This document shows, piece after piece, positions 9,001 through 58,965 of a stretch of 64,000 nucleotides of DNA. The DNA comes from a virus (lineage: Duplodnaviria; Caudoviricetes). The stretch is taken from the IMG/VR virus record IMGVR_UViG_3300026549_000046, positions 68,048 to 132,047 of that record. One strand, written 5' to 3'. The notes under the pieces were generated by a model. That model saw only the letters and a list, made by a program, of their open reading frames with translations. It did no database searches and had not been told where the DNA came from. A program made the position numbers and the translations under genes. How positions within the stretch are numbered: the stretch's first letter is position 1; the number at the start of each line of letters is the position of its first letter.

Positions 9001-12000
9001 TTAGCATCTGATGTTACTGGCAATGCTGATAGTCTATCAAATTCCGAGCCTGGTGCTACAGCATCTTTAAAATCATCTGTTGCTTCATCAATTCCTGACT
9101 ATCCTTGAATTAAATTTATTGGATTTTTAGAGATATTTTTAGTTTTTATAGAAATAAAATTATAAAGAGCGTATTTACGTTTAAAGGCTTTATTCTTTCC
9201 ATTTAAGAAAGTGTTATGTCTATCAATTAAATCTATTTCTTCCTAAAATCTAGGAGATATATATTTTAATTTATTTGCAGTTCTTATAAGTTCAACTAAG
9301 CCCGATAAAGAGTATTTACCATCTTCTGTGAATTCTAAACTATTAATATATTCATCAAAATCCTCTTCAAAATTATATTCTTTAGTATTAATACTATTTT
9401 TTATTCCCCAAGCTTCATTACTTATATCCTTAACTCCCTCTAAAGAGTCTTGATAATAAACATAGTCTCCTTGTGGAATTTTATGTAAAATAGCTCTGAT
9501 AGTAGTGTAGCTTATATCTCCAGATATAGCCCAATAATCTTGAGTTTCAGTCTAATACTTTATTGCAGATAATACATTTCCATTACTATCCCTTACTATA
9601 ATTTGATTGTTATTTTGAATTAAGGTATCATAATTTTTTTCATTGACATCAAATGCTCTTGCTGTCATAGAATCAACTTGTACTTTTCTTCCAGTAGGGA
9701 ATGGAAATTTTTCAGATATATCTGCATTTTCTTTAGAAGATAAATCATAAAAACAGCTCCATGTAATTAATTCTCCATTATGAAATTTAAGTCCTAATAC
9801 ATTTGCTTTATCTATGTCCAGTTTATCTTATATTTTTCAATATAAGCTCGACTATATCATCATTTCAAAATATATATTCTGAAATGTCTCGCGCTTCGGA
9901 ATCTTACGAATCCTACTCCATTTCTGGATAGTCTGTGAACCTTCATCTTAAATTGAAGATGCTTGGCTGCGGATATTCCAATTCATTTCCTTTTTTACTA
10001 TATCGATAATAATTAATTATCGCCCTCAGATATATTTCTATTCTAAGTTAGTAGGAAAGACTCTAAGGAAGTCCCCGTCAATTCACGAGATTTAACGACT
10101 ACAACATTATTTAAGTGCATAGTCACTACCTTGAAGGAATAACTACATTCTACTAACATATATAGAATTAGCTTTTCCTTGGTCAAACCCAACTATTCTC
10201 ATAGCCATGAAGGACTAATGAGATTGAGCTGGAGTTCTTGATACAATACATTCAAGAGAATCTAAGAAAGAAGTATGTTTATTGAATCCTTTCTAAATAA
10301 TAGTTTTTAAGAATGGATATTTTATCTAAAGATTTTCAATTAGTTCTTGTTTATTAGATAATCTATTATTAGTTATAACTTCTAATAATTTGTTTATTCC
10401 TTCTTGATAATCTTCTTGACCTTTACTTATTAAATCAGAATATCTAATTTCATTAATTAATACATCATTATTAATAATATCATTAATTGTAAGGTCTTCT
10501 ACATTCTATATTTGTAATAGTTTCTAGTCTAATCCTTTATCAACTAATATTTTTAAAGAATTATCTCCATTTCCAGATTTAAGTCCTTCTTGATGATTTT
10601 TAGTTCTTACTCTTGCTATATTTACAATTCTTTCAATTAAGTTCTAAGAAACTTCATTAGTTGAATTATTTATTTGTGATAATATCTATCCAAGATCTTC
10701 TTCTCTTACATTTCCAAATTGTACATTATTATAGTTAAAATAATCTAAAAACTGTGTCAAATTATCAGTACTTATAATCTCAGTTCCATTTTTACTTCTA
10801 AATATTTTTGTATTTTCAGTAATTGGATATAATTTCTTTCCATTTTCTGAACGATAAAGTACTCCGTTTTCAGTAATAGTTTCTATATCAATTTGAGTAA
10901 GACCTCTAGGTAATTCCCTACCATCAGCATAATGCAAATAAATATGATTACCACTTCCAACTTTTAATTCTAAATCAAATTGATGTGGAAGTAATTTAGA
11001 AGATATTTTTTGAGCATCTCTTTTAATAAAGAAAAATTTATCTTCCACTATTTCATCAACCTAATCCCCTTCTTGTAATCCAAATTCAGTTCTATACATC
11101 ATTGGAAGTACTGCTTCGTATGGAGTTACTTTAGTTTTTGTTTTATCGACAACAATGGTCTATCCATCTATTTGAACAGTACTAGCTGTTCCATTTCCTA
11201 AGGCATCTAAAGTTTTTTGTAAATTATGTCTTAAATATTTTTCAAGCTTAATATTTCTATTAGGAATTAGATTGCCATTATTATCAGTAGTATAAGGAAC
11301 TTTTAAAGAAATTAACCAATCATCAAGAAGTTCATTTTCAAGTTGACTTAATATTTCATTAGATTTCCATTTATTCCATATTTCTTCCTAAATAGTTTCA
11401 GGTTCATCAAAAGTTCCGTCTTTCCTAATATACTATAGCTGTCTTACAACGTCAACCTACCATAATGAATATTCAATTCCGTCTTTAGAAGTTAAAGTAC
11501 AATCATATGTTCCTAAGTCACGTCCTATAGCTTTTTGAGTAGAATTATCAATAAAAGCTTCTGTAATACGTTGTCCTTTTTTGTAAGCTTCTCTTAATAA
11601 TTTAAAGTCAGGATAACTATCAACTTTAACTAATTGTAATTTATTTCCTAGTGCATCTGAAATATAATAATTTCTTCCAAATTTTATCTAAGAAATAGAT
11701 AAAGGTGTAGCATCAGATTTTTTCTACATCTCAATAAGTTCTTTAGGACTTACTTTTCCACTTAAACGATTTCCAATAAGTTCTTTTCTTCTATTAGATG
11801 GATTTAATACCATTTGACCCCCGTCCATTTTGAGACGTACAGCCTTTTCAATACTTGAAGCAATTTTAGATTGAATAATATTGAATATACGTGGATCACT
11901 TATTGCAAAATTTCCTTCAAAATCTTCTAAGCTATTTAAATTTAATTCTTTTAATCCCTAAGCTAATACTGACATAATGTTTCCATCTTCTATAGAAACA

Positions 12001-15000
12001 TTATTTAAAACTTTCTTTAATAAATTATATATAAATATTTTTAAAGGTTCTGAATTTCCATCTTGTAAATGTAATAATCCATCAAATCCTTCTTCAAAAC
12101 TCTATAATACAACAGCTTCAAGAGCTTCATAACATTCTTGGGCAGCCTCACGACTATAACCCCTTGCTCCTAACGCATTAACAACCTAAGTCATTAGTGA
12201 TACATGTCCTCCTTCGGAATCATGTTCAGCATCAAGCTGCTCTCCAAAATCAGAAGAATTACATTCCATCCAGGTAGCCTAATAATCTTCATTATAGAAG
12301 TCTATAGAATTTATATTTGTTGCTCCGAATTTAGAAGCACCCATAGTTACAACAAAATTAACCATAGATTGTTTAAGAACCTGAATTACATTTTCCTAAG
12401 TTTTAATTTTAGAGTTTTTGAAAGCACTTTTATTATTTGTAATTCCAGCATTATTCATTATTTGAAGAACATTTAATGTAGAGGAATCATCATTTTCATA
12501 AGATAATCTACCATTCTATAAATGTCCAGACCATTCTCCTCCAAAAACTTCTTTCCATAACTAATAATTAGAATCTATAATTTTGTCTCCAACTCCTTCA
12601 TTTCTTGAGTTATTTAATTCTTCTCCGTTACTAGCAACAGTAACTTCATCCCAATGAGTTATTCCATTTTCATCAATTCTAAGATTACTACGTTTTGTCC
12701 ATAACTATTTTTCTGGATTATAAACATACCAAGGGTCTACTTGAATTGCAGTTTCGTCATATTTTTGAAGATAATTAAAATATGGATTTTGTATTCCATT
12801 CTATTTTAGAATTTGTGTCCATTTAATAGTATCATTCATTTTACGATTCATTATGGCATCTCTTCCATTGGCTCCAGGTAATTGACTTTCTCTAATAGAT
12901 TGGTTATTAATTAAAAATCCAGCAGTTTTAATAATTAATCCAATACCCGTCTATGAATCAAGAGCATGAGTAAAAGGTTTCATAGTAGTTCCCATTGCAT
13001 CTGCTCCAAGAGAATTATTATCAAGAACATTCATAAACATATTATAGAATGTTGCACCATCATAAGGTTTAGTTCCACCTTTCTTATATAATCCTCCATA
13101 AGTAATAACAGAATCTCTTTCATCTTCAACAATAAAGAATCTTAATTTTTCTCCAATACCATATAAAGAATTTTGCATTTCTCTATGTTTAGAAGCGGTC
13201 TAAGATACTTGACGTTTTACTTGCTATCCGTATTGAGACTCTTCGTAATTAAAGATTGAAGAAGAATTTGAGTTTCCAGGATGTGCTATAAATGATCCAA
13301 CAGATGTTAGATTATAAGATTCTCCTATCCACTGATTTAAAGCATTGTGTTTTTCAATTTCAGGATTTAATTCAATAGAATATTGTGAAGATAATCTGTC
13401 TTTAACAATATCTAAATCTTCAACTAATTTAAACATTTCAGAAATTAAAACATCATCCTTAGAATTAATAATACTCTGTTCTACAATATCATTTATTGCT
13501 AACTTTGCAATATAATCAGATAGTTCTTCTTTTGATTTAGAATCAATAAATTCTTGAGCCTTTCTTACAATAGTATCATCATGCCAAGTAGGATTTTTCT
13601 TTCTTAAATTTGATTCTATTGCAATTTGAATATTTGGAGTTAATTTAAGAAGTTTATTTTTTAATCTTTTATTATTTAATAATATTTCAATAGCTTCTTT
13701 AGTAGTTAAACTTCTAAGTCTTCTTGTATTATTAATTATTTCTAAAACTTTATCAAGTCTAAATGTAGGACTTGAAATTTTTAAGTCTGCTGGAAGACTT
13801 TCTCCAAATAATTCTACTAGTTTCTAGTATTGATTCCAATTTTCAAAATCTTTTCTTGAAATAATAGATTGTTTATTTTCTTCTCCTAACATTACTTTTC
13901 CAAGAACAACCATTGAACCTTGCATATAATTAATATCATTATTTCTTTTATATGCAATAGCATTAGCTTTATCAGCAGCTTTATCAAGTTTTATTGTAAT
14001 ATTATTTCCAAAAAATTCTTGTAATAATTGATATTTGTGCCTAATTTTTTCTTGTTCTGGAGTTTCTAATAACTAAGATTTGTCAAATTTTAAATTAGAA
14101 TCAATTTCAAAATTTTTAACAGGTCTTCCATATATAGATAGTTGATGGAATAATGATGGATTGTTATGTAAAAATCCTTCTTTGTCTTTAATATAAGATA
14201 CACCATCAATCATTTTTACAGAATAATCTGGCTGTCCTTTTTCAAGTACCTATCTCTGTAAAGTAGCCACTGCATTATGTAATACACTAAAAGCTGTTAC
14301 TTTAGTTAATCCTTTTTGTTCTCTAATAGTATTTAACTAGCGTATATAGTTATTAAATTCCTAAAAATCCGAATTATAATCTAAAGTAGGAATCTACTAT
14401 AACAAAGCTTTTTCTTCTTCTGAAGCAACAATTGGAATTAAAGGAGTTACTATTTCTAGTATTACATTGTTAATTTTATTATATTCCTAAATAATATTAT
14501 TATGTAATTTAGCGTAGTAATTTCCAAATTCTAACTGTTGTACTTTTCTTATTTCATCAGCAGTTAAATCTTTAATATATTTTAAGCCTACTCCTGGAAT
14601 ATTTACAGTATCTAAAGGTCTAACTAATATTTTAGGTAATTTAGATTTATCAGAAATTGTTGGACCAAATATTCTTATAAACGTTTCATTAATTTTTTTA
14701 TGTTCTGGAGTAATTTCTCCAAATTTTCCATCGTCTGTTTCCTAAGATATTCCATCATATAAATCATAAATAAAAGAACCTGAGAAAAATTCATTAGATG
14801 AAAATTTAATAGCCTACTAGTTACTACCTAATCCATTATAATCTCTTACAAATTCAATTCCATTAAATAACTGATAAATTGAAAAATCATTATATTTCAT
14901 AATAGAATTTGGATTGAAATTATGATTATATGATAATTCCATATATTTACTCATAAGCTAAGATAGTCCTCTAATAGCTAACTACTTATTTTCTCCATCT

Positions 15001-51014: not shown

Positions 51015-54000
51015 TTAAATTTCTCTCGCAATATACGACCTGTCAATTTGTTACCATTAGGCTCTTTATCCTAATTTCAATATGTTACCATATTGTTCAG
51101 ACTATATCATCACTTTATAAAGTGTCGGGCACTCGTGTCAGGATTATTGTTTGTGATACTCACCTGTTAGTCGTTAGCGGTTTAATGTACTTTTATTCAC
51201 TTCCATTACTTCCGACGGGATTGTCCTTTTCAGGAGATTCCCCGTTTTCACCCGATTTTTCACTAGATTCTACTAGTGCCACACAATCAGTAATTTTATA
51301 AGTTTTCTTATACAAACTTCCAATATTAGCTGCTTTTTTCATAGCATCATATTTACATTCTTTTTCTGGAAATTTTTCTAAAAAATCTTGAATACTCATT
51401 ATCCAAACTTCTCCAGTTTTGATGTTTTCTATTCTTCTTATTTTTTGTTTAACTTTAGATAATTTTTTTCTAGTTTCTTCAGAAACAATTTTTCCTTTAT
51501 GAGCTTGTCCAATTTTTTTCTTATGTTCTTCAGTAAGTTTTCTATTGTGCATTGCTTCAGAAATTTTTTTCTTTGCTTCTTCTGTATGATGTTTACCATA
51601 CATTCCATTACGTTCTCCAAACATTTTACGTTTTTCTATCCATTCTGGGGTTTGTTTTATACCAGTCATGTCTGGAGTATAATCAAAATAACAATTAATA
51701 CATAAAGGATCTTTTTCTACAGATTTAAGAAGAGTTACTTCTCCAATATTTGCTAATTTACGAGTTTCAAATACTTCTAATATTTCTTTTTGTAAATCAG
51801 AGTAATGTTCTTTTATATAAAGTTTAGTCCATATAGAACTAGATCCCATATATTTATCATCTTCTATTTCACAATCACAACTTCGAACTCCAATATAAAA
51901 TTCTTTTGTTTTAACATTGGTTATTTTATAAGTATAATTATATTTATGCATAATTTTTTAATTTTAAGTTTATATTTAATTTTATCTCTTAAAATATAAA
52001 ATTCAAATTAAAAAATCTCATAACATAAATTACTGTGTGTATATTGTCAAATTTGTCTTGCAATATACGACTTGTATGGATTAAATACTGCAATGCCAGA
52101 ATATCCCCACATAATTAACTTAGAACCGGCTACTGGACTAGCTACTTCTCCAGAGCTTAATCCATTTTCTCTACCAACACCTAAATATTTGTTGGAAATC
52201 ATATCTCCGCCTCTAAGAGTAAACATTGCCGATTATTTCGGCTCTATAATATTTCTATTATAGTCAGACTATATCTTTAATTTAATCTTCTAGATATTTC
52301 CATACAAACCCTCCTGCTGTTTTTCTTTTTCCAGTCAAAACATTCGGAGCACCACAAGTATCAGCTTTAGCTTCTCTTACGGTATTAAAAATTTGTATTA
52401 ATTTACCTTCTAATGTATATTTTCCAACTTTTCTAGCTTTTGTTTTGGGTTTCAATTCTTTCATATTAGGAAGTTTCTCCCAACTCCACTGAAATCCCAT
52501 ACAACTATTATTCAATCTTATTGCTGCGTGTATTCCAATATCTTTTCCAAAATATTTTTTTATTTCCGAATAGTTATTCCACTCTTTAATAAAATTACCT
52601 TGCAAATCATATTGATATAGTTTATCATTTTTATGATTTATAAAATTTTGTATTGGAAATTTATCATATTTTATATCACTGCAATAATATTTATTTGCTA
52701 TACAAAATTTTCCACGGATTGCTTTAGATACTTTTTGTAAATCCTCTTTTATATATTTAGAACATTCTGATATAGAATTAAATTCATTTATAAAATTTCC
52801 ATTAATATCATATAAATATGTTTTTGTTTTATTTTCATTTAATTTAAATTCATCTAAATTTAATTTATCATATTTATATTCAGTCCAAAAATATTTAATA
52901 CTAGGCGTTCTTTCAAAAATAGCTCTTCCAATACTACTTGGAGAACATTTATAATATATAGAAGCATTAGTTATCGAATCCCATTCCTTTATAAAATTAC
53001 CTTCTAAATCATATTGATATATAATTTTGGTTATAGCTGGAGGTATTCCTCCTCCGAGAGTAATATTGTAAGTATCATTTCTTTTTATAAAGTCAGAATC
53101 AACTAACCATCTTTCTAAATCTAAAGCATCTTCTAATTTATCAAATACTTTTAATGTTATTCTTTTAAAATTATCTACCCCATATTTATTTACAGCTGCT
53201 TCGAATGGAGTTTTACTGTATTTATAAGTGTACTTATCATTAATTTTTACTCCACATCCTAAATAACCATCAAAATGATTAGGATTTGTTGTTTTATGTA
53301 CCCCTATATAAATTTTTTTATTTACTAAATTAGTTGTTAAATATACAATATATTTTAAATTATTTTCCATTTCCATAATATTTTATTATGTACGCCTCGC
53401 GGCTAGTCGTTGAACGTCTATTAGAACTACTCTAAACAGAGCCTGTATAATCTAATATTTCGCTGCTGATTGTCCAATCTTCAAGATTTTTACACTTTGG
53501 TACTTGAAGCTCTAAGGAGTTTCCAGCAATTAGAAAAATATTTGTTTTTGCTTTATTAAGCAGCCCTCCTACCACAATGTTTAATAGGAGGTTGTGCAGA
53601 AGTCTTATCTGCGGTTAAATCCAATGCAAGCATGTAACCTTTTTCATCATTAATGTTAGCTTTATGTTTCCATAAAAGATCAGACTATATCTTAATCTTC
53701 TTCTATATATTTGAAAATAAATCCTTTACAATGTGTTCTTCTTCCTTCTATAACACCTTGAGCATTAGTAAATCCTGCTCTTTTACATTCTCCTAAAGAT
53801 TTATAAATAGTAATTAAATTTCCATCTTTATCATATTGTGCAACTTTTTTTGGATTTCCAAATCTACTTTCTAATCCCTTTTTATCAGAAAATTTATTTA
53901 CCATTTTTTCCCAAATAGTATCTTTATAAGTATTGTAATCTTTCATAAAATCCACTTTAATTTTAGATACTTGATAATCTCCACAGAATCCATAACCTTG

Positions 54001-57000
54001 TTTTAAAGCTCTAGAAATACTAGATCCTCCAGATTCTCTTCCATAAATAAATAAAGCTGCTTTCTGTTGAGAAGGAAATTCCTTAACAAAATTTCCGTTT
54101 TTATCATAAAGAAATACTCCTTTAGAATTGGTCGGAACAACATCTTTACCTCCACCTAAAATCATATTATATGTATCAGGTCTTTTGATAAATTGTTCAT
54201 CTACTAACCATCTTTCTAAATCTAGAGCATCTTGTCTATTATCAAACACTCTTAAAGTTGATCTTATAAAAGCAGATGTTCCATATTTTTTCACTGCTTT
54301 TTGAAGAAGTGTTTTAGGATTCATATAAGTACTTGGTTGATTAATCCAAATACCATTTCCAATATATCCATCAAATTCTAAACTAGCGGTTTGATGTATT
54401 CCAATGTATATTTTTTTATTAACAGTATTTACTGTTTGATATACTATATTAAAGATTTTCTCCATTTCAATTAATTTTAAATTAATTTACGTCCATTCGG
54501 ACTAGTCGTTGAACTTATCTTATTTCGTCGCATTGCGATACACAACTAAGATTTAGCTGCTGATTCCCATGTTATAAAAATAATTTAGGGTTCCAGCAAT
54601 TAGAAGAATTTAATCGAATAGTATTACTACTATAAGTGGGCTAGAAAAAGTTAACCCAAATTCACGAGAGAAAGTTCTATCAACCTTAAAACTAATAGTA
54701 TTACCCTACCAATTATAAGAATCAAAGCCCTTCGCTCCAACTGAAACATAATCATTAGCTTTCATAGACCAAAGATATGTTCCATCAGTATGATACTGTG
54801 CTAAATACTAATCAAGTATATCTCCAAGATCATACCAAGCCTTTTCGTTACAAATAAACATGTAGTGGTTACCAGTAGGCTTTTCAGCCTTTTCATTAAG
54901 AGCCATCATCATTGTTTTAAGTACTCCGATAGTCAATTTATTATAAGCATATTTACTAGCAAAAGCTTCTACCTATGGAATTATGCCATCAGAGATATAA
55001 ATGGGACGATTAGTATCTGGATCCACAATGGTTGGTTTTCCTGTTTCAGGATTTACATTTCCTTTAGAAAATAATAATCCTTGGTTTCTTGCAGTAAGGA
55101 AATTATCAAGTAAAGTTTTTTGAGTTTTATCCATTCTATAAATAGTTTCACTCAAATTACCCTAATCTTTACCTTCAGCAATTTTAACAAAAACATCTTC
55201 CTAAGCAGCATATAAAGCTGAATAAGAAATATCATTTCTGTGAGTAGAAATATAACCACGATGTTTTTCTACATTAGATTGCCATTTTACGTATCCTTCT
55301 TCCGTTTAACCTTTTATGTTACCATAAAAGACTGACTATATTATTAATTACGTTAAATATTTATAAATATGTTGTTTATGAGTTTTATTTGTACCAGCTA
55401 AAACCTTCCATACTGAGGTTCCGTTTTCCTTTTCAGCAGCAGTAGCAGATTCATATACTTTTACTAAAACTCCATCTAAGGAATACTTTCCAACTTTACG
55501 TTTTTGGATTTTCTTTTTTGGAACATTATAATTATCTAATTTTTCTAATCCCCATAAATATCCATTTTTATCGGGAATTTTTAGTTTAATGGATTTAGTT
55601 ATATTAGTTTTGTTTTCTAACTCAGCTTCTAATTGTGTTTCATATGATTTACAGAAACTTCCATCAGGATTATATCTATAAACAGATCTTGTTTTTAAAT
55701 ATTCTGTTCTTGCTTTATCATAAGATTCTGCTTTAATATAAGATATGTAATATTTATTTTTTACAAGAACACCTAATATGCAAGCATTTCTAATACTAGA
55801 TGAACTAATTCCAGTTTTTCTTTCACAAGAAGCTTGAGTTTTAAATCCTCCTAAATATTTTCCATCTTTAGAATAAAAAAATACTTTTATAGCATGATTT
55901 AATCCTAAATTATAATTAGTTAAATCTAATTTTTCTACTTTGTCTGTATTCCAAAAATATCCTTTTGCTTTAGCTTTTTTTCTTACAGCATAAGAAATTA
56001 AAGTATAATCACAATTTAATTGTAATGCTGCATCAGCAAAACTTTCATATTCATTTATATAATTTCCATTTTCATCATATTGATATACTTTAACTCTATT
56101 GCTTATAAAATATCCACCTAGTCCCCCAAGAACCATATTGTAAACATCTTCTCTTTCTAAGAATTTTTCGTTTACAATTTGTTCTTCTAAATCAGAAGCT
56201 TCCTCTACGGTATCAAATACTGCTAATGTTTTCCTTCTGAAATTTTCAGGACCATACTTTTTTACTGCATACTGAAATGCGGTTTTAGCATACATATAAG
56301 TATAAGGTTGTGTAGAAATTACTCCGTTTCCAAGATATTTATCAAATATATCTGGATTTTCGGTTTTATGTAGTCCAACATAAATTTTTCCATTGACTAA
56401 ATTTGTTGTCTCATAGACAATATATTTCCATTGTTTTTCCATATAAATATTTATTATAATTATTTACTCTTTCGATATTAAATATCTACGCCTTGCGGCT
56501 AGTCGATGAACCTTATTAATTATCCTCTGCTCTATTAGAGTGAAAATTAATCTTGGCTTCTGATTATCCTATAATATATAGGATGTCCCAGAAATTAAGT
56601 AAATTTTCTTAATTAAATAATTAAAAAATTATTCCAATTAAGGCACAAATTAGTTTATGCAATTCAGGCATATAGTTACTAATCCAACGCGTTTTGTCTC
56701 CAGGTTGACAAGCACTTAAATCCAGAACAGTATCATAATTATTGTCAACAAGTCTTACAACACATTCCCAATAATTCAAATTTTGACTATATCATTTACT
56801 TACTATATTTAAATATGTAATCTCCATAATATTTATCCCCCAATTGAATATTTTTAATTTTAGAAGCTGGAATGTTATATTTTTCTTTTACTTCCTTTAT
56901 AGATTTCATTTGTTCTATAAAATTACCATATTTATCATATACATCTACACATATTCCATTTCCTATTCTTTTGGCAGGAACTTTATCAATTTCTTCTAAT

Positions 57001-58965
57001 GAAATATAAAAATCTTTGTACCAGTTTTTATATTTATTAAAAATATGATGTATGTGTTCCCATGAATGGAGATTTATTGCTTTCATTAATTCTTTTCCAA
57101 CAAATTTTCCGATAAAATTATTGTTTACATCATATACATAAAAAGTCATATTTGTATACAATTTTCTTGGTTGAATTATAAATTCGTCCATTAAAGAAGT
57201 TGAAACATAATATTGTTTTTTTATTAAAGTTTGATTTCTAATAGCTCTAGAAAGTTCTCCATTATCATACCCTATATCTTTTGAACATTCTGTTTGAGAA
57301 GAGTATTCTCTTAATAATTTTCCATCTTTAGAATATAAATATGTAGGATTATTTAATGTTTTTCTAGAATATTCATCAATATCTATTGTTGGGGAAGTGG
57401 ACCAGTATGAATTTAAAAATATACACTTATTTCTTTTAGGACTTTGAAATCTATCTTGATCATATCCATAAAATTCATAAGCATCTTTAGATTTTTCCCA
57501 TTTCTTAATAAGATTTCCATTTAAATCAAATTGATATAATGGCAACCATCTATCTTTAGTTTTTCCTCCAACTACCATGTTGTACACATGATCTTGTTTT
57601 ATAAAATCTACATTAACTATTTCTTCTTCTTTTTTATATGCATCATCTTCATTATCATAAATAAATAAAATTTCTCTTTTAAAAGCTTTTATACCATATT
57701 TTTTTACAGCATACTGAAATGCTGATTTTGGATATTTATATGTACTTGGTTGTTGAACATATACTCCACAACCTATGTAGCCATCGAATATTTCAGGATC
57801 CTCTGTTTCATGGACTCCAATGTAAATTCTATTTATTCCATTAATTTTTGATTTTAAATTTGTTGTTAAATATATAATATATTTCATAAGTAATTCAGTT
57901 TTTCGATTATTTTATCACAAAATTATCTACGGATTTCTCCTAGTCGATGAACGCTACTGTCATCACAGTCACGCTGCTGATTGTTACTATTGTACTTTCC
58001 AGCAATTTAAAGAATTTTAAATTCAATATTTTTTCAAATATAGGGTGACAATTTGGGAAGTTTATCACCTTTGCGGACAGGACGTCCAACTACCTAACAC
58101 TACTGTCCTGAGTTTTCAATCTTAAAGGTATCATATTTTTCATAGTATCTTTCTCTAAAGGCCATTATAATTTCAGTACCTCCAGCACCATCACCTTCTG
58201 GTACAGCTGCAAATTCAATACGTTTAATGTAATTAGTTTCCGAGCAGACTATATCATTTATTACTTCTTGTTGTTAAATATACAATATAATTCATAATAA
58301 TTCAGTTTTTCAATTAAATAAAATTTAATTTACGCTTTTCAGCTAGTCGTTGAACGCTGTTGTCATCACAACCACGCTGCTGATTGTTACATTTTGTAAG
58401 TTCCCAGCAATTTAAAGAATTTATTTAAGGGAGATCAAAACTAATTAAAACTCTAAAAAGAGTCTAATCTCCCAGTCGAATTGTAAAGCATTTACAGATT
58501 GATACTTATTACCACTACCTTTAGCATCTTGATAAAATATGTTCTTAAGAGATTCGGTAAGGAAAGATGCAGTTAAGTCGTCGTACATTCTTGATACAAC
58601 ACCAAGACGTGTAGGCTTAACTCCGAGGTACTTATAAAAGTCCTCATAAGTTCTAGTATCCAATTTCTTACTTTGTAGTTCTTTATCTACAAACTAATAT
58701 TTTATCATTATATTAGTTGAGACTATATCTTCATTGAATAGCCAATGTTCGGTGTTCGTGGAATCTTTTATTAAGTCTATTTATAGATTCTAGTCGTTGA
58801 ACCTTCTTACTAAGATTTCCGACTTCTTAATAAGCTTGGCTGCTGATTGTCCAAATTATCTACTATGAAGGATTCCCAGCAATTTACCGAATTTTAAATG
58901 GGCAATAACTAGAATTATTCTTTACCCATTGTGGGGATATTAGAAGTAAAAGAAGCTATTTTCAT
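51015..58965 (-). CDS. Major capsid protein (crAss-like, HK97 fold), 8 exons, 476 aa after splicing
   Basis: Exons: 58924..58965, 58466..58660, 58064..58240, 56657..56776, 54654..55302, 53583..53647, 52076..52229, 51015..51043 (sum 1431 nt). They join in frame: MKIASFTSNIPTMG|DTRTYEDF..FDWEI|ETNYIKRIEF..RKGD|NYWEC..PELH|EEGYVKWQSN..FSREFG|YEKGY..AQPPI|AMFTL..VFNP|YRSYIAREI*. Seven TAG codons by my count. Confidence 0.88.
51044..52075 (-). mobile_element. Group I intron 7 of the capsid gene (1032 nt), HEG in the P1 loop
   Basis: Exon/intron CCAU|ACAA pairs with UUGUGUGG (~51279-51286). Core AAAACGGGGAA, AAUCCCGUC, CUAACGACUA and AUGAUAUAGUC. Terminal G at 51044. Confidence 0.88.
51193..51951 (-). 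CDS. GIY-YIG homing endonuclease with NUMOD3 motifs (I-TevI-like architecture)
   Basis: YTYKITN..FYIGVR and YMGSS. NUMOD3-like MYGKHHTEEAKKKIS and HKGKIVSEETRKKLS. Inside intron 7. Confidence 0.88.
   Translation of the reverse strand: MHKYNYTYKITNVKTKEFYIGVRSCDCEIEDDKYMGSSSIWTKLYIKEHYSDLQKEILEVFETRKLANIGEVTLLKSVEKDPLCINCYFDYTPDMTGIKQTPEWIEKRKMFGERNGMYGKHHTEEAKKKISEAMHNRKLTEEHKKKIGQAHKGKIVSEETRKKLSKVKQKIRRIENIKTGEVWIMSIQDFLEKFPEKECKYDAMKKAANIGSLYKKTYKITDCVALVESSEKSGENGESPEKDNPVGSNGSE
52230..53582 (-). mobile_element. Group I intron 6 of the capsid gene (1353 nt) with HEG
   Basis: P AAUUGCUGGAAA, Q AAUCAGCAGC, R UUCAACGACUAG, S AAGAUAUAGUC. P10 AAACAUUG pairs with 3' exon CAAUGUUU. Terminal G at 52230. 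Confidence 0.9.
52282..53376 (-). CDS. GIY-YIG homing endonuclease with NUMOD1-type repeats
   Basis: YIVYLTTNLVNKKIYIGVH..YLGCG, with repeated YQYDLxGNFIKEW units. The stop overlaps the intron S element. Confidence 0.88.
   Translation of the reverse strand: MEMENNLKYIVYLTTNLVNKKIYIGVHKTTNPNHFDGYLGCGVKINDKYTYKYSKTPFEAAVNKYGVDNFKRITLKVFDKLEDALDLERWLVDSDFIKRNDTYNITLGGGIPPAITKIIYQYDLEGNFIKEWDSITNASIYYKCSPSSIGRAIFERTPSIKYFWTEYKYDKLNLDEFKLNENKTKTYLYDINGNFINEFNSISECSKYIKEDLQKVSKAIRGKFCIANKYYCSDIKYDKFPIQNFINHKNDKLYQYDLQGNFIKEWNNYSEIKKYFGKDIGIHAAIRLNNSCMGFQWSWEKLPNMKELKPKTKARKVGKYTLEGKLIQIFNTVREAKADTCGAPNVLTGKRKTAGGFVWKYLED
53648..54653 (-). mobile_element. Group I intron 5 of the capsid gene (1006 nt) with HEG
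   Basis: P1 UGGGU/GCCCA. P, Q, R and S elements present. Terminal G at 53648. Phase-1 insertion. Confidence 0.9.
53692..54465 (-). CDS. GIY-YIG homing endonuclease with NUMOD1-type repeats
   Basis: IVYQTVNTVNKKIYIGIH..YIGNG, with VFLYDKNGNFVKEF and VAQYDKDGNLI repeats. Confidence 0.88.
   Translation of the reverse strand: MEKIFNIVYQTVNTVNKKIYIGIHQTASLEFDGYIGNGIWINQPSTYMNPKTLLQKAVKKYGTSAFIRSTLRVFDNRQDALDLERWLVDEQFIKRPDTYNMILGGGKDVVPTNSKGVFLYDKNGNFVKEFPSQQKAALFIYGRESGGSSISRALKQGYGFCGDYQVSKIKVDFMKDYNTYKDTIWEKMVNKFSDKKGLESRFGNPKKVAQYDKDGNLITIYKSLGECKRAGFTNAQGVIEGRRTHCKGFIFKYIEED
55303..56656 (-). mobile_element. Group I intron 4 of the capsid gene (1354 nt) with HEG
   Basis: P1 GCAU/GUGC. P AAUUUCUGGGA, Q AAUCAGAAGC, R UUCAUCGACUAG, S AAUAUAGUC. 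Terminal G at 55303. Confidence 0.88.
55348..56442 (-). CDS. GIY-YIG homing endonuclease with NUMOD1-type repeats
   Basis: YIVYETTNLVNGKIYVGLH..YLGNG, with four VYQYDxNG-like repeats. Confidence 0.88.
   Translation of the reverse strand: MEKQWKYIVYETTNLVNGKIYVGLHKTENPDIFDKYLGNGVISTQPYTYMYAKTAFQYAVKKYGPENFRRKTLAVFDTVEEASDLEEQIVNEKFLEREDVYNMVLGGLGGYFISNRVKVYQYDENGNYINEYESFADAALQLNCDYTLISYAVRKKAKAKGYFWNTDKVEKLDLTNYNLGLNHAIKVFFYSKDGKYLGGFKTQASCERKTGISSSSIRNACILGVLVKNKYYISYIKAESYDKARTEYLKTRSVYRYNPDGSFCKSYETQLEAELENKTNITKSIKLKIPDKNGYLWGLEKLDNYNVPKKKIQKRKVGKYSLDGVLVKVYESATAAEKENGTSVWKVLAGTNKTHKQHIYKYLT
56777..58063 (-). mobile_element. Group I intron 3 of the capsid gene (1287 nt) with HEG
   Basis: P1 GGUGAU/GUCACC. 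P10 UUCCCA pairs with exon UGGGAA. P, Q, R and S present. Terminal G at 56777. Confidence 0.88.
56796..57887 (-). CDS. GIY-YIG homing endonuclease with NUMOD1-type repeats
   Basis: YIIYLTTN..RIYIGVH..YIGCG, with LYQFDLNGNLIKKW-type repeats. Confidence 0.88.
   Translation of the reverse strand: MKYIIYLTTNLKSKINGINRIYIGVHETEDPEIFDGYIGCGVYVQQPSTYKYPKSAFQYAVKKYGIKAFKREILFIYDNEDDAYKKEEEIVNVDFIKQDHVYNMVVGGKTKDRWLPLYQFDLNGNLIKKWEKSKDAYEFYGYDQDRFQSPKRNKCIFLNSYWSTSPTIDIDEYSRKTLNNPTYLYSKDGKLLREYSSQTECSKDIGYDNGELSRAIRNQTLIKKQYYVSTSLMDEFIIQPRKLYTNMTFYVYDVNNNFIGKFVGKELMKAINLHSWEHIHHIFNKYKNWYKDFYISLEEIDKVPAKRIGNGICVDVYDKYGNFIEQMKSIKEVKEKYNIPASKIKNIQLGDKYYGDYIFKYSK
58241..58465 (-). ncRNA. Group I intron 2 of the capsid gene (225 nt) with HEG remnant
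   Basis: P1 GGGAGAUU/GAUCUCCC. P10 AAUUAGUUU pairs with exon AAACUAAUU. P, Q, R and S present. Terminal G at 58241. Confidence 0.88.
58254..58295 (-). pseudogene. 13-codon remnant of a GIY-YIG homing endonuclease (MNYIVYLTTRSNK*)
   Basis: Same position, same leader (AAAAACTGAATTA) and same N-terminus (cf. MKYIIYLTT) as the intron 3 HEG. Confidence 0.75.
58661..58923 (-). ncRNA. Group I intron 1 of the capsid gene (263 nt, no ORF)
   Basis: P1 AAUGGGU/GCCCAUU. P10 UUCUAGU pairs with exon ACUAGAA. P AAUUGCUGGGAA, Q AAUCAGCAGC, R UUCAACGACUAG, S AAGAUAUAGUC. Terminal G at 58661. Confidence 0.92.

Follow-up and report, generated by a model that had tools for sequence, protein, structure and literature searches.

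The locus and its capsid gene

The 64,000-nt stretch of DNA analysed here (the window) comes from an IMG/VR virus record of 132 kb and contains the major capsid gene of a crAss-like phage, whose intron 7 begins with an in-frame copy of the last exon of the gene. This intron-borne copy (T_i), the last exon itself (exon 8, or T_e) and the element that carries the copy are the subject of this article. Coordinates follow the numbering of the whole window, and intron 7 and its flanking exons are read on the minus strand. The host gene was identified through an uninterrupted homologue, L001 (473 aa), which matches the Pfam family Crass_capsid (PF23898) with 52.2 bits against a cut-off of 27; the capsid exons of the window are 47–71% identical to L001 by tblastn, and in the exon 7 region L001 residues 415–473 align with 52226..52050 at 68% identity (tblastn). 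Single window exons searched alone against PF23898 gave no match.

Seven in-frame TAG codons lie within the capsid exons (54708–58102, minus strand), several of them opposite Gln of L001. By this reading of the code TAG is a sense codon in the late genes of the phage, and TGA and TAA stay stops, so that the claim of a preliminary description of this DNA, that the copy and the last exon stop at the same codon, holds for T_i and T_e alike. The intron endonuclease open reading frames (ORFs) of the window are open under the standard code, unlike the TAG-containing capsid exons. Intron-rich capsid genes and stop-codon recoding were already known in crAss-like phages (Yutin et al. 2021, PMC7886860).

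Intron 7 spans 52075..51044 (1032 nt) and is ordered as T_i, a 95-nt spacer, an endonuclease ORF that contains the guide near its end, P2, and the core P3–P9. The features of the locus, all on the minus strand, are as follows.

52076..52228, minus: capsid exon 7, whose 3' end reads ..AAT CCA T, the final T being U52076; its start is placed at 52228 on the strength of G52229 and the frame
52047..52075, minus: T_i, the intron-borne in-frame copy of the last exon, which completes Tyr and continues KSYIARQI to a TGA stop at 52049..52047; 25/29 identical to exon 8
51952..52046, minus: AT-rich spacer of 95 nt between T_i and the endonuclease start (folds and consensus scan)
51193..51951, minus: homing endonuclease gene of I-TevI type, 252 aa (Pfam NUMOD3, PHROG 314, family profile to 1I3J)
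51279..51286, minus: 3' strand of P1 (the guide), in which GUGG (51282..51279) pairs with exon CCAU, and UUGU (51286..51283) pairs with ACAA of T_i or, as P10, with ACAG of exon 8
51261..51278, minus: P2 hairpin, CACUAG with CUAGUG, found in relatives at the same place with different sequence (alignments A1 and A2; by eye, uncounted)
51044..51260, minus: core of the group I ribozyme (P3 to P9.x), with G51044 as the terminal G (Rfam and RNAalifold)
51015..51043, minus: exon 8 (T_e), directly after G51044, with the canonical ending RSYIAREI and a TAA stop at 51017..51015; its peptide is that of the tail of element-free L004
50928..50950, minus: terminator-like hairpin 3' of the capsid gene, followed by the next head gene; element-free relatives share this layout of tail, hairpin and next gene

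A copy of the last exon at the start of intron 7

T_i (52075..52047) and T_e (51043..51015) are identical at 25 of 29 bases, and each is preceded, in the same phase, by the split Tyr codon (T|AC). The unspliced message reads ..NPYKSYIARQI-TGA and the spliced message ..NPYRSYIAREI-TAA, each consisting of the completed Tyr, eight codons and a stop. The four differences are K/R, the silent pair GCA/GCG, Q/E and TGA/TAA. Both the in-phase match with its stop at the same codon and the make-up of the differences (two conservative changes, one synonymous change and one stop for another) had been given in the preliminary description, and both were reproduced as listed. When both strands of the window were searched for other T_e-like 29-mers, the next best matched at only 19 of 29 positions; the probability of at least 25 matches at one fixed place is about 3e-10. 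The similarity ends abruptly at the edges of the copy, falling to 21/60 in the following 60 nt and 6/30 in the preceding 30 nt. Pairing in P1 and P10 was considered as the source of the likeness and rejected, since the guide pairs only 2–4 bases past the splice site and not 29.

Two further features lie at the 3' edge of the copy. A promoter-like TTGACA-17-TATGTT starts at 52050 and overlaps the T_i stop (consensus scan). The T_i bases CGUAUAUUG pair with CAAUAUACA just 3' of the stop (52040–52069, minus strand), so that the loop contains the Gln and stop codons; similar hairpins of other sequence are seen in the relatives L092, L128, L023, L091 and L138, and some elements have none. The T_i hairpin is better than shuffled controls in 6 of 15 elements, and with its status uncertain no family-wide feature is claimed.

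A group I ribozyme with conserved exon pairing

The Rfam model RF00028 matches 51078..51302 (minus strand) with 67 bits and an E-value of 4e-17, above the gathering score of 50, which identifies intron 7 as group I; a 20-kb Rfam scan missed it, and it was a focused scan that detected it. The bases at the splice sites fit group I chemistry, U52076 standing immediately 5' of the intron and G51044 closing it. In P1, a helix formed over a long range, CCAU|ACAA (52079..52072) pairs with UUGUGUGG (51286..51279), and the splice-site pair is U.G. Pairing between exon and guide, four pairs in all, is perfect in 16/16 elements and occurs in three covarying versions, CCAU/GUGG, CCUU/GAGG and CCGU/GCGG, the variable position being A-U, U-A or G-C. 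Compensatory double changes were found in 25 of the 41 pairs, across P3, P4, P5, P6, P7.x, P8 and P9 (RNAalifold, 13 ribozymes). Taken together, the covariation and the perfect exon-guide pairing speak for long-term selection for splicing at exactly the exon 7/exon 8 junction, and the covariation weighs against exon 8 being a dead remnant. Intron 7 contains a real group I ribozyme, which is predicted to splice.

The endonuclease gene and its position

The endonuclease ORF contains an I-TevI-like DNA-binding module, recognised by Pfam NUMOD3 at 37.6 bits (cut-off 20.4), and matches PHROG 314, ‘homing endonuclease’, at 4e-30. I-TevI itself was reached only by the profile of the endonuclease family, which matches the I-TevI DNA-binding domain 1I3J with an E-value of 1.2e-4; a search of PDB with the single endonuclease sequence (phmmer) gave no match. 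As regards the GIY-YIG domain, the ORF had no Pfam match and no match to a PDB catalytic domain, and the pattern Y-x-Y ... Y-I-G-V-R-S is invariant in the family alignment (A3). Public metagenomes hold more than 120 homologues of the endonuclease at 50–98% identity, and a scan of viral contigs with P0072 gave no match.

The gene sits in the P1 loop, 5' of the guide and of the entire core, and some 1 kb separates the core from the 5' splice site. The last ~30 endonuclease codons (..DCVALVESSEKSGENGESPEKDNPVGSNGSE; 51193–51290, minus strand) are the guide, P2 and P3–P6 read as protein; because these codons double as ribozyme, full translation and ribozyme folding should exclude each other on one RNA. 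In the neighbouring intron 6 (52229–53580) the Rfam match is split, with model positions 47–158 before the endonuclease gene and 219–251 after it. Judged from such positions, the endonuclease ORF of intron 6 is in a late loop and intron 7 is the exception, with its gene ahead of the whole core.

Relatives without the element

The native ending of the capsid gene was examined in 17 related genes from phage and IMG/VR collections. Fifteen of them end ..[NS]PY[KR][SA][YFA]I[ALMI][RKS]E[IVLA]-stop, and in 14 of these a terminator hairpin and then the next head gene stand 3' of the tail, the downstream region of L010 being less clear; the other two are interrupted by introns elsewhere, and their tails were not seen. 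A metagenome scan gave a similar view: of its best 80 capsid ends, 71 are element-free, with Glu at codon 8 in 69 and Gln in two. The exon 8 peptide of the window is identical to the tail of L004, which is among the element-free relatives.

The two Gln cases are L174 (2001–2177) and L179 (1164–1340), intron-free and endonuclease-free capsid genes that end ..RQI, like T_i, and not ..REI. The tail of L174 resembles a mosaic of the T_i and T_e of a composite relative, L128. Both genes could possibly be excision scars or endonuclease-resistant alleles. Group I introns also occur at two more sites inside the exon 7 region, in L011 (3293–3421) and L013 (1079–1189), after ..WGYAS and after ..GSKL, and neither of these two introns has a copy of its downstream exon.

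A series of forms at one capsid site

T_i is present, in frame and with equal length, in at least 15 diverged elements whose endonucleases are 49–98% identical (the window, L022/23, L091, L092-096, L104, L115, L123, L125, L126, L128, L130, L131, L132/133, L161 and L198). Together with relatives that lack either the copy or the ribozyme, they make up a series of forms at the same site.

Form a, the composite layout seen in the window (exon 7, T_i, spacer, endonuclease gene, ribozyme, T_e): L022/23, L091, L092-096, L104, L115, L125, L126, L128, L130, L131, L132/133, L198
Form b, composite with the endonuclease gene decayed or lost and T_i retained: L125 (deletion in the catalytic motif), L123 (last 68 codons only), L161 (gene and spacer gone)
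Form c, composite layout with a frameshifted T_i: L134-136
Form d, endonuclease gene in the P1 loop and no T_i, the gene beginning 18 nt past the splice site: L107
Form e, ORF-less intron without T_i, with a 23-nt P1 loop and an in-frame TAA at the junction: L114 (Rfam 56.3 bits)
Form f, no ribozyme and both tails, with the capsid gene and its own tail, a spacer, and an endonuclease gene that overlaps the untouched native tail: L138
Form g, no ribozyme and no second tail, with the capsid gene, a spacer, the endonuclease gene and a terminator: L098-102, L137

Two pairs of near-identical genomes differ in having or lacking the endonuclease cassette, namely L138/L001 and L107/L114. In the first of these, the flanks of L138 are 98.5–98.7% identical to those of element-free L001, and the tail of L138 differs at 8 of 29 bases with zero amino-acid changes; the native tail of L001 is matched twice in L138. 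A diverged tail between near-identical flanks means that the copy is imported DNA and not a duplicate of the local target. In the ribozyme-less genomes the element-borne tail is the sole capsid ending, reading ..MKEV in L138, where the native peptide is kept through silent changes, and ..RCKE in L098-102 and L137, in each case without the Gln of the window. Such a tail can therefore be a working C-terminus.

A ribozyme without a copy (L114, L107) and a copy without a ribozyme (L138) indicate that the copy belongs to the endonuclease cassette and not to the ribozyme. The proposal of the preliminary description, that the intron supplies its own replacement exon, thus stands in that an element-borne tail serves as the sole ending in ribozyme-less relatives, and has to be amended as to which part of the element the replacement belongs to. 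T_i outlasts the loss of the endonuclease gene in L161 and L123. Where splicing works it is dispensable, being frameshifted in L134-136 and absent from L107 and L114. The same description had named loss or frameshift decay of the copy in orthologous introns as evidence against its proposal; both do occur, in the lineages just given, and the copy is kept in at least 15 elements.

Some of these relatives have features of their own. The ORF-less intron of L161 (2001–2330), which keeps T_i as KSYILRQI with 8 bases from the T_i stop to the guide, amounts to a natural ‘mini-intron’. L107 (reverse strand, ~11660–12610 in that orientation) and L114 (2825–3075) come from one metagenome and share an identical T_e and near-identical downstream sequence; the TGA stop of the L107 endonuclease overlaps the guide, and the unspliced frames of both stop at a TAA directly at the splice junction. 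In the endonuclease gene of L104 (3640–4407), TGA occurs at two conserved Trp positions of the family; this phage appears to read TGA as Trp, which would mean that the element family inhabits both TAG-sense and TGA-sense genomes. Just 3' of the T_e stop in L092-L096 (~3536–3550 in L092), a run of C varies from ~4 to 13 bases among otherwise near-identical contigs from different samples, and may be an assembly artefact or a hypervariable homopolymer.

Conservation of T_i and the Glu-to-Gln change

The preliminary description had asked for the same intron in related capsid genes and for purifying selection on the copy, and the composite relatives bear this out: besides being kept in frame and at equal length, T_i differs from T_e within 12 composite genomes mainly at silent sites (proportion of silent differences, pS, 0.79; of replacement differences, pN, 0.16; ratio 0.20), a conservative count in that Ser and Arg codon-family switches are scored partly as replacement. 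The T_i of L104 differs from its own T_e in 6 of 9 codons with a single amino-acid change, and the T_i copies of the window and L126 encode the same peptide with four base differences, all silent or from stop to stop. The spacer that adjoins T_i is barely alignable between elements, unlike T_i itself. Ongoing gene conversion between T_i and T_e was rejected as the general main cause of the likeness, since the silent sites are near saturation. The window's own pair is unusually alike (25/29), and recent conversion or a recent origin is possible in its lineage.

T_i is also closer to the T_e of its own genome than to those of others, at 17.9 vs 15.1 of 26 (0/20000 shuffles), and lineage-specific residues are common to T_i and its own T_e, namely Glu and Val in L104, Gln in L132 and Leu in L131. 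Two explanations fit this pattern, protein-level selection in place, or each T_i having recently been the genuine tail of a related donor. L138 is proof that the latter process takes place. Some present-day constraint on T_i is favoured too, by its persistence beyond endonuclease decay, the divergence of the spacer and the reliance of forms f and g on an element-borne tail.

Of 15 T_i copies, 13 have Gln at codon 8, encoded by CAA, CAG or, in phages that have recoded TAG, by TAG; every T_e has Glu there, as do 86/88 element-free tails. The Glu-to-Gln change amounts to G to C/T at intron base 21, and apart from it exon 7 plus T_i recreates the uninterrupted target. Loss of the G with a similar residue in its place is the pattern that self-protection would be expected to leave. 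A more speculative suggestion is that this change protects the exon 7–T_i junction from the element's own enzyme.

A proposed mechanism and its alternatives

Intron 7 is likely to be a functional and mobile group I intron whose P1 loop holds a cassette of T_i, spacer and I-TevI-like endonuclease gene, and splicing and T_i are likely to be redundant; T_i would probably be a conserved surrogate gene end that is used. The anatomy of the locus, the keeping of T_i across the family with little change to its peptide, the covariation of the ribozyme and the derivative forms are observed, and it is from them that we infer the translation of T_i, active splicing and endonuclease activity.

Transcription and translation are coupled in bacteria. 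Since the guide and core lie past the endonuclease gene, about 1 kb from the splice site, and would be transcribed that much later, ribosomes trailing the polymerase on a heavily translated message should reach and cross the 5' splice site before splicing is possible, translate T_i and finish a complete capsid protein whose C-terminus is ..RQI. At a later time, or on RNA that carries fewer ribosomes, P1 would form and splicing would join exon 7 to exon 8, giving the canonical ..REI. In ordinary phage introns, to judge from work on those of T4 (PMC3984707), such ribosomes would meet an early stop and make a truncated protein; the product of forms d and e would be ..VFNP-stop. Element-free capsid alleles are the expected substrate for cleavage by the endonuclease, and their repair would then copy the whole unit. 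Redundancy between splicing and the surrogate ending would explain why relatives could lose either one.

Several points weigh against this reading. One lineage has a frameshifted T_i (L134-136) and that of L107/L114 has none, which means that T_i is not required. If T_i were fully sufficient, the conservation of the ribozyme would need another, unnamed reason; splicing may be retained because the Glu ending is better, or because excision matters for expression of the endonuclease or of the downstream genes. Selection that acted earlier in donor phages, on genuine tails later imported with the cassette, could account for part of the low pN/pS, instead of selection on T_i at its present site. 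The GIY-YIG catalytic domain is suggested by a motif seen by eye and not by a Pfam hit. Finally, Glu is kept in the T_i of L092 and L198 and in the endonuclease-adjoining tail of L138, which weakens the idea of immunity through the Gln codon.

A wider version of the proposal can be put forward only tentatively. T_i might have a dual role, as a working capsid C-terminus and as a disarmed endonuclease target, in which case the T_i/T_e repeats would allow precise excision that leaves Gln-tailed resistant alleles (such as L174 and L179), and the endonuclease gene would shuttle between the intron and the stand-alone state. If this were true, the last capsid codons would record an arms race.

Two routes could have led to the composite. 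In one, a cassette of form f, standing alone and bringing its own gene end, would have recombined with an ORF-less intron at the same site, which would correspond to the invasion or collaborative homing summarised in PMC3984707; in the other, an intron with an endonuclease gene in its P1 loop (form d) would have gained tail and spacer in an untidy repair, and forms f and g would have arisen by deletion of the ribozyme. In the endonuclease tree the stand-alone state needs 2–3 changes and a single stand-alone clade appears in 0% of 200 bootstrap trees, with the base poorly supported, and an approximately unbiased (AU) test does not reject such a clade (p 0.38). Given that base and that AU result, no claim of ribozyme loss over ribozyme gain is made.

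Among the other explanations of T_i, the one that survives best, though we regard it as unlikely, is that it is a functionless relic, either of a cassette captured behind the capsid stop or of untidy homing that kept the recipient tail, its seeming conservation being due to recent genuine tails or to refreshment by recombination. The imported tail of L138 would suit such an origin, and matches the fungal mobile ORFs (mORFs), whose inserted C-terminus is ascribed to horizontal transfer (PMC3630166); the decay of T_i in L134-136 and its absence from L107/L114 would suit it also, as would the way in which T_i follows the lineage-specific residues of its own T_e, expected with closely related donors. 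A relic is harder to reconcile with a T_i whose frame, length and peptide are kept over endonuclease identities of 49–98% beside a spacer that can hardly be aligned, with its outliving of the endonuclease gene in L161 and L123, and with a Gln at codon 8 that is reached through three codons (CAA, CAG, TAG), which points to constraint on the peptide and not on DNA alone.

It is rather improbable that T_i is kept mainly for a role as DNA or RNA, with its translation incidental, whether as a decoy or immunity homing site, a homology arm, an operator of the endonuclease (compare autorepression by I-TevI) or the arm of a stabilising or terminating hairpin. Exon 7 plus T_i does recreate the uninterrupted target save for base 21, where the change recurs, a promoter-like site overlaps the T_i stop, the hairpin exceeds shuffled controls in 6/15 elements, and the two element-free alleles with a Gln tail (L174, L179) are possibly resistant alleles or excision scars. 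None of these roles, however, predicts an open frame, a stop at the same codon or the turnover of silent sites with the peptide kept, and the hairpin is not general. That the ribozyme is dead, the gene simply ending at T_i and exon 8 being left over from an insertion, is very improbable, for although ribozyme-less relatives live on an element-borne tail and the native tail of L138 is an untranslated remnant overlapped by the endonuclease ORF, the Rfam match of 67 bits, the compensatory changes in 25/41 pairs and the three-way exon-guide covariation in 16/16 elements all speak against it, as does an exon 8 that retains the family-consensus peptide and is identical to that of element-free L004.

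Comparison with known systems

The preliminary description had likened the intron to integrative elements that rebuild their target gene. The likeness is apt, and the nearest real precedent is the fungal mitochondrial mORF with a replacement C-terminus, known from atp6, atp9, cox2 and nad3 of Glomus (Beaudet et al. 2013, PMC3630166) and, as cited in that paper, from atp6 of Allomyces macrogynus (Paquin et al. 1994). As in the window, the fungal mORFs have an endonuclease gene right behind an in-frame substitute gene end, with the native end downstream, and as in L138 compared with L001, the DNA of the inserted end has diverged much more than that of the flanks, with the protein nearly identical (PMC3630166). 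Unlike the window, they have no ribozyme and their native end is a dead remnant that is not rejoined, whereas the ribozyme of the window is intact and could still rejoin that end; further differences are that the element of the window interrupts the capsid gene of a phage and that no more than 29 nt are duplicated. On this comparison the element of the window is an mORF-like cassette within a T4-type mobile group I intron, and not simply an mORF.

In the T4 introns of td, nrdB and sunY a peripheral loop, inside the core or 3' of it, holds the endonuclease gene, in contrast to the gene of the window, which lies in the P1 loop ahead of guide and core. In these introns the 5' splice site is soon followed by an in-frame stop, and the intron contains an endonuclease gene of I-TevI type (reviewed in PMC3984707). 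They share with the window a group I ribozyme in a phage protein gene and a modular endonuclease with NUMOD-type modules, a GIY-YIG domain being suggested in the window by a motif, but their read-through peptide is meaningless and the unspliced product truncated, while read-through in the window reproduces the end of the protein.

Two routes to composite mobile introns, as summarised in the same review (PMC3984707), are invasion by an endonuclease gene (Loizos, Tillier and Belfort 1994) and collaborative homing (Zeng, Bonocora and Shub 2009; Bonocora and Shub 2009). These routes recall the window in that sequence of the intron on either side of its endonuclease gene is like the exon junction, a feature also of sunY, and recall the family in that an ORF-less intron (L114) and stand-alone endonuclease genes (L138, L098) occur at the same capsid site. 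The family differs in that the partners stand in different genomes, an ORF-less intron and a stand-alone endonuclease gene not having been found together in any one genome among the relatives examined. The crAss-type capsid gene described by Yutin et al. (2021, PMC7886860) resembles that of the window in being interrupted by several group I introns that carry endonuclease genes, and late genes again read TAG as sense; the intron passages of that paper make no mention of an intron-borne copy of a downstream exon or of stand-alone relatives of an intron endonuclease. The partial coverage of the literature made here found no description of a phage intron-borne downstream-exon copy, which is weak evidence of novelty.

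For annotation, the consequence is that a crAss-like capsid gene of this kind looks complete unspliced, so that the intron and the true last exon are hidden, and the capsid protein may exist in two C-terminal forms. The family also offers a sequence-level system for how endonuclease genes join and leave introns, and for the cost of an intron in the most heavily translated gene of a phage.

Islands and prophages that target tRNA genes use site-specific recombinases and attachment sites, and such an element carries a replacement 3' end of its target gene. As in the window, the gene end is displaced, a working substitute is supplied and a direct repeat is left; unlike them, the element of the window is expected to move by double-strand-break repair, and splicing coexists with the substitute end. 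Mobile group I introns have usually been described as harmless only through splicing, and stand-alone endonuclease genes in coding sequence only through a replacement gene end. The element of the window has both safeguards, and its relatives show each of them lost separately.

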